Shown here: positions 32,020 through 33,990 of the stretch, piece after piece
Position numbering within the stretch: position 1 is the stretch's first letter
Layout of the letters: the number at the start of each line of letters is the position of its first letter
From: Octopus vulgaris
Taxonomy: Eukaryota
Reading direction: 5' to 3'
Length of the DNA: 64,000 nucleotides
NCBI GenBank assembly: GCA_951406725.2
Contig: OX597826.1
Span: 81,840,001 to 81,904,000 of the forward strand
Notes under the pieces: model-generated
Seen by the model: the letters and a program-made list of their open reading frames with translations, nothing else
Databases searched by the model: none
What the model was told of the DNA's origin: nothing
Program-made: the position numbers and the translations under genes

Positions 32020-33990
32020 ATAACTCTGTCTTCTATAACCCCGACAGCAAACCATACAATATGAGGATCTACCCCACAGCCTTACCCCCCAACAAAAGGG
32101 TATGTATCCCACCACAGGTTGACAGTGAGGCAAAGATTTCCTTAGCTAGAAATAAACTGCGACACATTTTAAACCGGTACAACCACTAAAAACAGAATGA
32201 GAGGTGGGCCCATCAACTCAGTTCATCTGTTGCCAAAGGCCTACAAAAACTGAAACAACGAATAGGAACCGGATGTTAGTACGCCTCCCTACGGACATCC
32301 CACCGAACTAAGCAACACATCAGTAGCATGAGAGACGTTGCACCACAGGCACATGAAGGAGTTGGAAAACCCCTCGATGCACACATGGGAACGTGGTGCA
32401 ACATGCTCCCACACAACAAACAGACTGCACAAAATTTCAAAGCATTCAACAACGATGTTCGTATACTCTACGAGCTACGTAAGGACCATAAACCCTACGT
32501 AAACCCCATTACGAGGCCCCTAATCCAGCCAGTTTGTGGAGCGAATATCGCAGCGATTATGAGTTATCGTACTTCTTCTCCCAGGTGTTTCGACCACTCA
32601 TTGAAATGTCACCAGAGGTCCGTGCTAGCACGGAGGATCTCCTTCCTAGAATCAGTAGTTGCAACCATTCTAATGACCTCACAGGTTGTATATTGGGTAG
32701 TATGGACGTAGTTTCACAAAAATGCATTGAGATTATCTGTGAGAGTGAAGTAGAGTTCGGGGAAGTCAACACGAGGGAACTAAACTATGACTGTAACTAC
32801 CTAGACAACCAAGACCTCAGTAGATTCTTTCCCACCAGGTCACAGAGGATAAGTTCACTCATCATCACCTCGGCAGTGAAGAAAAGCACCGCAGAGCGCT
32901 GGAGTGGCTGGACAGTACCCTCCCACGAGCCTGAGAACAACAGTCAGATGGAAAGAATGATTTCACATGCAATAGCGGCCAGCATAAGAACCACCTCGAA
33001 TAACCACATAGTAAAGTTCAACAGGAAACTATGCATGCAGGTTCAAGGTGTAGCCATTGGTGTCGGTGAGTCTGGAGAGGTGGCCAGCCTCTTCATGACC
33101 TGGTGGGACAGAAAACTTAAACAAGCCTTAGCGGAACAATTCACAACTTTACTCTAGGTATGTAGATGTCATTCATATTTTAGTTAGGACAAACTATAGT
33201 AACTGTAATGTAGAAACTGAGAGGAACATAAAGGAGAGCATCCAGCTAACTCCATCCACCAAAGTATCAAGGTAACTGTAGATTACAACAAAGTGCAGCT
33301 CCTCCATTCCTATTACATAAAACCCAAAGCTTCTAAATATGTTGTTCACAAGAAGCCAGCTTTGCCACACAACATGAAAATCAAAGCATACCGATAGCAG
33401 ACTTAGAATAATGAACAACCTGTCCCCACTATGCAAACCCTATGAAACAAAAGAAACGTGTACAGAACTTCGTGCAGCGCATACAATTCTCTGGATATGA
33501 TCAGAAAGACAGGATTTGGGTATTCAGGGGAACTAGAAAGCAGTTAGCATTATATGTAATGAAGCCAGTGGTGCATGCCCTAGATATAGAAGCAAAGGCA
33601 CAGCCATACACAACAGACGCACGTACATAGTCACACAAACCCATACACAGATACACTCAAACATGCACACACAAGGAGACAGAAGTAGACACATACACAT
33701 ACAAACAAACATGAACATACAAACACATGAATATGCAGAATACATACATACAAACGTGTACACACGCATATATACCGAAAATAGGTAAATAGAACCTTCG
33801 AACAGAGACGATCAGTGGCGACACCTGCTGAGTCGACTACGCTACATTGACAAAGGGCAAATAGCCTGAAACGCGTCTGTAGCTGTCTGACTAGCAGTGT
33901 GAAGCGGCTGACCTCCCTTGTTCGAAGGTTCTAACGGACACAGTTTGTGTGTCATATAGCTATCTTAAGGCGATGTGTACATGCTATTTA
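32020..33990 (+). mobile_element. Decayed Penelope-like element: RT plus thumb, and a 3' pLTR-like region with a hammerhead
   Basis: NKRVCIP; GLQKLKQR..PTD (DKG-like region); LYELRKDHK..QPVCGAN; STEDLL; ILGSMDV; QVQGVAIG..GEVASLFMTWWD; RYVDVI; ANSIHQSIKVTVDY; thumb FVQRIQFSGY. Frameshifts and deletions are present. Clade not assigned. Confidence 0.8.
33841..33883 (+). ncRNA. Minimal type-I hammerhead ribozyme, U3-A8 core variant
   Basis: GCTACA-TTGACAA-A-GGGC-AAATA-GCCT-GAAA-CGCG-TC-TGTAGC. Perfect 6-bp stem I, stem II, palindromic stem III (ACGCGT) and a GUC cleavage triplet. Confidence 0.8.

Follow-up and report, generated by a model that had tools for sequence, protein, structure and literature searches.

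Penelope-like elements (PLEs) have been named strong candidates for the movers of animal retrozymes, in a paper that offers no direct evidence for it (PMC7229834), and a 2026 preprint ties retrozymes to pLTRs by phylogeny and local amplification (10.64898/2026.07.22.740005); its main text does not contain the words 'tail' and 'octopus'. PLE reverse transcription was described to start at two internal sites, which define an optional genomic tail that the authors call unique to PLEs, and the hammerhead was reported to be dispensable for PLE insertion in vitro (PMC11167929). PLE tails and inverted partners have also been described in a second report (PMC8557442). The U3-A8 variant of the hammerhead core is known in nature and is reported to be active in vitro (PMC3088659), ∼1,300 motifs of this type are reported from Schistosoma PLEs (PMC4209133), and the roles of the equivalent residues in the loop 1/loop 2 contact were described for the Schistosoma hammerhead (PMC2632901). 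The U3-A8 variant and retrozymes are already published, and both U3-A8 and the rod described below have precedent; the new part is a PLE footprint on a retrozyme-type unit. We found no description of this family or of its footprint in the literature searched, mainly open-access titles, and supplements may list cephalopod U3-A8 motifs.

A hammerhead at the apex of a rod hairpin

The window, i.e. the whole stretch of 64,000 nucleotides of Octopus vulgaris DNA that was analysed, contains a hammerhead motif that the first-pass annotation had placed at the 3′ end of a PLE. The features of this region are the following.

32023..33773, plus strand: old broken PLE, comprising RT and 3′ UTR with the GIY-YIG region deleted at ∼33597; host of the insertion (72–79% identity among the best copies)
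33774..33975, plus strand: young non-coding repeat, a predicted retrozyme unit, truncated to 202 of its ∼364 bp (the only interval matched by 29/29 other top copies)
33790..33933, plus strand: rod hairpin extending hammerhead stem I (fold z −7.79; compensatory changes across subfamilies)
33838..33840, plus strand: UAC bulge, which together with U33884 makes the predicted internal loop 1 of a loop 1/loop 2 contact (T33838, C33840 and T33884 each conserved in at least 90% of 42 rows)
33841..33883, plus strand: type I hammerhead (layout and covariation), with cleavage predicted after C33877
33841-33846/33878-33883, plus strand: stem I of this hammerhead
33847-33853, plus strand: its core, U3-U4-G5-A6-C7-A8-A9
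33854-33867, plus strand: its stem II and loop 2
33868-33876, plus strand: its G12-A13-A14 and palindromic stem III
33864, plus strand: private C-to-G change (1/30 copies), with the predicted stem II register shifted by one base

The hairpin has a minimum free energy of −69.8 kcal/mol, and none of 200 shuffles was equally stable. The annotated 15-bp outer stem (33790-33804/33919-33933) and the bulged inner stem of the rod are both present; across the family, the outermost pairs of the former vary, columns 8–12 being unpaired in 7–31 of 42 rows. At the apex, stem I, the core UUGACAA and GAAA-CGCG-UC (33868-33877, C17 being 33877) were as annotated. The extra A and the stem II drawn beside them are peculiar to the window copy, as G33864 occurs in only one of the 30 closest copies; in the others stem II is a 4-bp [A/G]GGG/CCCU helix with the loop CAAAUA. 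The predicted pairing probability in the window copy is 0.97–0.99 for the slipped stem II versus 0.01 for the family register. The annotation had set the motif beside the minimal type I hammerheads of PLE pLTRs. Type I is correct, and the motif is full instead of minimal, because residues of the tertiary contact in the Schistosoma hammerhead have counterparts here in the CAAAUA loop, U33884 and C33840.

The model search that the annotation had proposed came out negative: no Rfam hammerhead family was found at the window, in one copy of the family or in seven relatives, some of them C3-G8, and the scans returned only noise from hairpins and microsatellites. As C3-G8 relatives were also missed, we concluded that the Rfam models miss this hammerhead architecture. 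Elsewhere in the window, positions 37208-37308 form a near-perfect hairpin of ∼100 nt, probably the head-to-head junction of a common repeat, whose matches to miRNA models were all weak.

For the comparison across copies, we aligned 42 of 151 motif-bearing copies, taken across the subfamilies and required to have kept the 5′ arm intact, with 33 or more pairs between the arms. On these rows, which are related to each other, the structure derived from the window paired 83.7% of the cells compared with 35–44% when the partners were slid, the paired fraction being inflated by the selection for intact arms. Changes on both sides were observed in 31 of 55 pairs, including 6/6 pairs of stem I and 1/4 of stem II, and U4, G5, A6, A9, G12, A13 and A14 were invariant. 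The centre of stem III is UA, GC or AU among the 42 rows, and a palindromic 4-mer was present in 93 of the first 100 of 937 matches. Hence, on rows chosen for intact arms, stems I and II and the palindrome of stem III covary, the latter as dimer cleavage requires, which agrees with the annotation's view of a palindromic stem III suited to dimers. RNAalifold kept only 11 pairs, located near the ribozyme (8 of them compensated), and dropped the distal rod. The core is that of a type I hammerhead with the 3-8 pair in its U3-A8 form. We concluded that the U3-A8 hammerhead in the window is real and covaries, and that the fragment of a large retrozyme-type family in which it lies is probably inert; its self-cleavage is predicted.

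A young repeat inside an old PLE and its insertion footprint

A rod search of the genome (2.8 Gb, 227 contigs) yielded 1,859 candidates, of which 40 were scored; the best 30 are 97–100% identical. All 29 of the other top copies match the window over 33774-33975 only, and their flanks revealed a unit of ∼364 bp in partial tandems and inverted pairs. The upstream relic is a PLE, because the ORF of a sister copy matches the Pfam GIY-YIG domain; six window ORFs gave nothing over the Pfam cut-off. The rod was absent from all 19 other copies of the adjacent RT, and the old PLE has its own, different hammerhead, which is missing from the window copy and lies further 3′ in other copies. Therefore, the young fragment is nested in the old PLE. 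The motif indeed lies at the 3′ end of a PLE, as a nested younger insertion and not as the pLTR of that element. It is also better preserved than the RT, as had been noticed, and the reason is its younger insertion (98–99% identity to the nearest copies versus 72–79% among the best RT copies).

Unit position 98 is the last one in the window copy, compared with 177 or 238 in the family, and both normal 3′ ends are absent. A single deletion probably took the 3′ ends of both the PLE and the nested unit, and the window copy, having lost its 3′ part, is probably inert. The 3′ junction of the window copy is crossed by one DNA contig, which reaches only 30 bases past it on one side, where a bridge would have needed 31. 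At two loci (L262:3391 and L201), the true 3′ end of the old PLE carries a minimal U3-A8 hammerhead-like motif having no loop 3. Another copy of the old PLE (L032, ∼3910-4120) contains, in its TA tract, a piece of the unit from an older C3-G8 subfamily, so that nesting at this type of site is seen twice.

With a unit-length filter of 345–375, 21 arrays were retained, having units of 360–365 bp and up to 4 motifs in a row. Units were 99.4–100% identical within an array (5 pairs) and 94.5–99.7% (mean 96.9%) between arrays, which would fit copying round one circle and also homogeneous source arrays. The predicted unit circle has a z of −5.7 against 60 shuffles, and opening the hammerhead core in it would cost ∼1.5 kcal/mol; the predicted circle of a sister subfamily is ∼65% paired. 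These properties, a non-coding tandem unit within 150–450 bp, a type I hammerhead and a self-paired predicted circle that leaves the ribozyme free, are those of a non-LTR retrozyme. The likeness to retrozymes that had been drawn from the rod is thus borne out; the viroid-like full rod is not, as the predicted circle combines a rod with a branched domain.

No intact ORF was linked to the unit in the 160 loci (539 kb) screened, and the RT plus GIY-YIG ORF expected of an autonomous PLE was thus not found with it. A shared coding flank was found in none of the unit subfamilies examined, and the homology of old copies stays within about one unit. Sense-strand RT fragments upstream of the unit at two loci (L131 and L230) were broken and unshared, and were judged to be there by chance. 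Contigs of the runs having no RNA record cover the unit in fragments, which cannot show ends or circles. Words of the unit occur at shares of 0.39–0.57 in runs (X15–X20) of five organisms. The unit family is probably shared among related species.

We next describe the insertion junctions, with unit positions counted from the predicted cleavage site. Among 70 direct insertions, 59 end at position ∼177 or ∼238, mostly into (TA)n, and these two fixed 3′ ends, 61 nt apart, delimit the optional 'tail' of the unit. In 32 of 45 inverted insertions, one of the two copies stops at the nearer site and its partner at the farther one. The unit therefore has the optional tail, the inverted 5′-truncated partner and the AT-rich target that mark PLE mobilisation. 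When copies with the 20 bases that follow the cut were inspected, 0 of the first 100 of 754 began at the cleavage site (by a pattern that misses junctions with G in the first place), and 1 of 30 further pieces begins one base before the predicted cut. As the copies run across the cleavage site, their templates must span it and were either circles or uncut multimers; this read-through fits uncleaved multimer templates as well.

The genome also contains young intact PLEs, and the two families that we examined have ORFs of 781 and 1,312 aa, the latter 64% identical to the RT of the old PLE. The elements of both families terminate in (TA)n and have optional tails, which are ∼38 nt long in the 781-aa PLE and ∼57 nt in the 1,312-aa PLE, compared with 61 nt in the unit. 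The motif ATAACAAT is common to the short ends of the 1,312-aa PLE and the unit, and beyond this short end motif we observed no clear sequence similarity of the unit to either intact PLE. A partner was not found by sequence: the unit was compared with 30 GIY-YIG loci, with another 20 and with 42 from the clade of the 1,312-aa and old PLEs, and apart from nested copies a single AT-rich match of 21 bp was obtained. Based on the tail length, the young 1,312-aa PLE would be the best candidate driver.

Both intact PLEs have hammerhead-like motifs in their 3′ repeats. That of the 781-aa PLE (L210:5883, and also L178, L181 and L184) is of the U3-A8 type with a CAUG palindrome and an AT-rich stem I; that of the 1,312-aa PLE (L290, ∼7280-7330) is C3-G8, with a C replacing A9. 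The 1,312-aa ORF has a long Asn-rich low-complexity insert, and a PDB search with this protein gave no match.

The U3-A8 core as a state of the family

The annotation had regarded U3 and A8 as compensatory rather than as decay. Searching the genome for a hammerhead whose loop 2 has six bases yielded 1,079 matches, against 0 for the reversed control pattern. Among them, 28 are C3-G8, 31 C3-A8, 14 U3-G8 and 15 have a purine at position 3, which leaves, by subtraction of these sub-pattern counts, 991 of U3-A8. A further 1,206 matches came from a sister pattern in which the loop has five bases, and among the matches listed all 100 are U3-A8. U3-A8 is therefore the family state, and the compensatory view holds family-wide, the older subfamilies being C3-G8.

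In a tree built without columns 3 and 8, C3-G8 lies on divergent old subfamilies and U3-A8 makes one supported clade (96/99) of 29 rows, with one row outside; a second comparison agrees. The switch between C3-G8 and U3-A8 in the family would thus amount to about one or two events, because of which the U3-A8 counts are not independent evidence. For the same reason, we set aside a Fisher test of positions 3 versus 8 (p 1e-28).

Some of the 31 C3-A8 and 14 U3-G8 copies cluster in one old subfamily. Most sampled copies of an old unit subfamily (L133, L137, L234 and L243) have the C3-A8 mismatch, in a sampling that was biased. This subfamily is a possible evolutionary intermediate. A distinct active C3-A8 subfamily was not established, as such copies were oversampled and include artefacts at junctions.

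Outside the unit, the genome has U3-A8 in three more hammerhead-like families, whose flanks are different. In a separate older hammerhead family, U3-A8, C3-G8 and C3-A8 states were all observed (L089-L092, L098 and L099 versus L104, L110, L111 and L118), and these mixed states suggest an independent switch. Three loci (L317, L318 and L319) represent a unit subfamily that has no loop 3 (GAAA-CG-UC in two of the three), which would be an obligate dimer.

Origin of the unit and its likeness to known systems

We favour, with fair though not full confidence, the reading that a non-coding U3-A8 repeat of ∼364 bp is present here as a truncated copy, the repeat being likely a non-LTR retrozyme and likely mobilised in trans by a PLE. 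Under this model, tandem transcripts would self-cleave as dimers via the palindromic stem III, and the monomers would be ligated into circles. The RT/GIY-YIG protein of a PLE would then nick (TA)n and prime reverse transcription at one of the two internal sites, and reverse transcription running round the circle would yield cDNA of more than unit length.

The main competitor, which we regard as unlikely but worth keeping in view, is a mini-PLE that is non-autonomous and whose copies are made from tandem transcripts left uncleaved; in it, the hammerhead fold is kept mainly for protein binding or folding and U3-A8 weakens cleavage or tolerates its loss. It accounts for the sampled copies all crossing the cleavage site and for the existence of copies with a mismatched 3-8 pair, and hammerhead mutants did not block PLE insertion in the reported in vitro assay (PMC11167929). 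However, it sits poorly with the seven core residues that are invariant in the 42 rows and with the retention of the loop 1/loop 2 residues and the palindromic stem III, and U3-A8 is reported to be active in vitro (PMC3088659). The unit could alternatively be the pLTR of an autonomous PLE that our screen did not find, its copies being 5′-truncated insertions; the hammerhead, short end and tail come in the same order as in the intact PLE pLTRs, and the ORF screen covered 160 loci of more than 2,000 motifs. We consider this quite improbable, as the sequence past the tail re-enters the unit in tandem arrays, 0/160 loci join the unit to an intact ORF, and old copies share no more than about one unit length. 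The annotation's own reading, in which the hammerhead belongs to the pLTR of the adjacent RT, is suggested by its position on the same strand directly downstream of the relic, and yet we give it almost no weight: RT copies with the rod are 0/19 and rod copies with the RT 0/29, the old PLE has a different hammerhead, and the unit and the PLE differ in age.

Going beyond the favoured retrozyme reading, the family might be taken as direct genomic proof that an animal retrozyme circle was reverse-transcribed and inserted by the still-intact 1,312-aa PLE, via tail geometry and not sequence, and that U3-A8 replaced C3-G8 independently in several hammerhead lineages of the genome, hiding thousands of active ribozymes from the usual searches. 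This extended version is tentative, and we lean slightly against it. The footprint makes it testable which enzyme moves animal retrozymes, and with young intact PLEs in the same genome the pairing could be put to the in vitro assay already published for PLEs. C3-G8, mismatched and U3-A8 cores occur side by side in the family as a series provided by nature. It also adds at least 2,285 motifs, most of which a CUGANGA descriptor would overlook and which Rfam did not detect at those loci where it was run.

Judged by its sequence, the unit falls within the definition of an animal non-LTR retrozyme (PMC7229834). Like the retrozymes described there (mussel repeats of 350–390 bp), it is a non-coding tandem unit of ∼360 bp having low GC (0.40–0.41 in the unit), coexisting PLEs, a type I hammerhead with a short palindromic stem III and a self-paired predicted circle. 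It differs from them by its U3-A8 core in most copies, and by being found mainly as short insertions scattered over the genome, which have two fixed 3′ ends and inverted partners of the PLE type. The minimal hammerheads of the Schistosoma Cercyon PLEs (PMC4209133) share the U3-A8 core covariation and the PLE context, whereas they reside in pLTRs and the octopus unit has no ORF, a 6-bp stem I, a 4-bp stem II and the loop 1/loop 2 residues. The Schistosoma Sm-alpha hammerhead (PMC2632901) has the same CAAAUA loop 2, U after stem I and C before it; however, its core is C3-G8 instead of U3-A8, and the base of stem II is A-U or G-U in the subfamily of the window (G-C in the sister subfamily). In its insertions, the unit resembles the canonical PLEs with a C-terminal endonuclease (Poseidon PAc, PMC11167929; Neptune-type, PMC8557442), with which it shares partial tandems, inverted 5′-truncated partners, an optional tail between two 3′ ends and AT-rich targets, but it is ORF-less and its tail is 61 nt long, compared with the 30–40 nt given for those elements (PMC11167929, PMC8557442).
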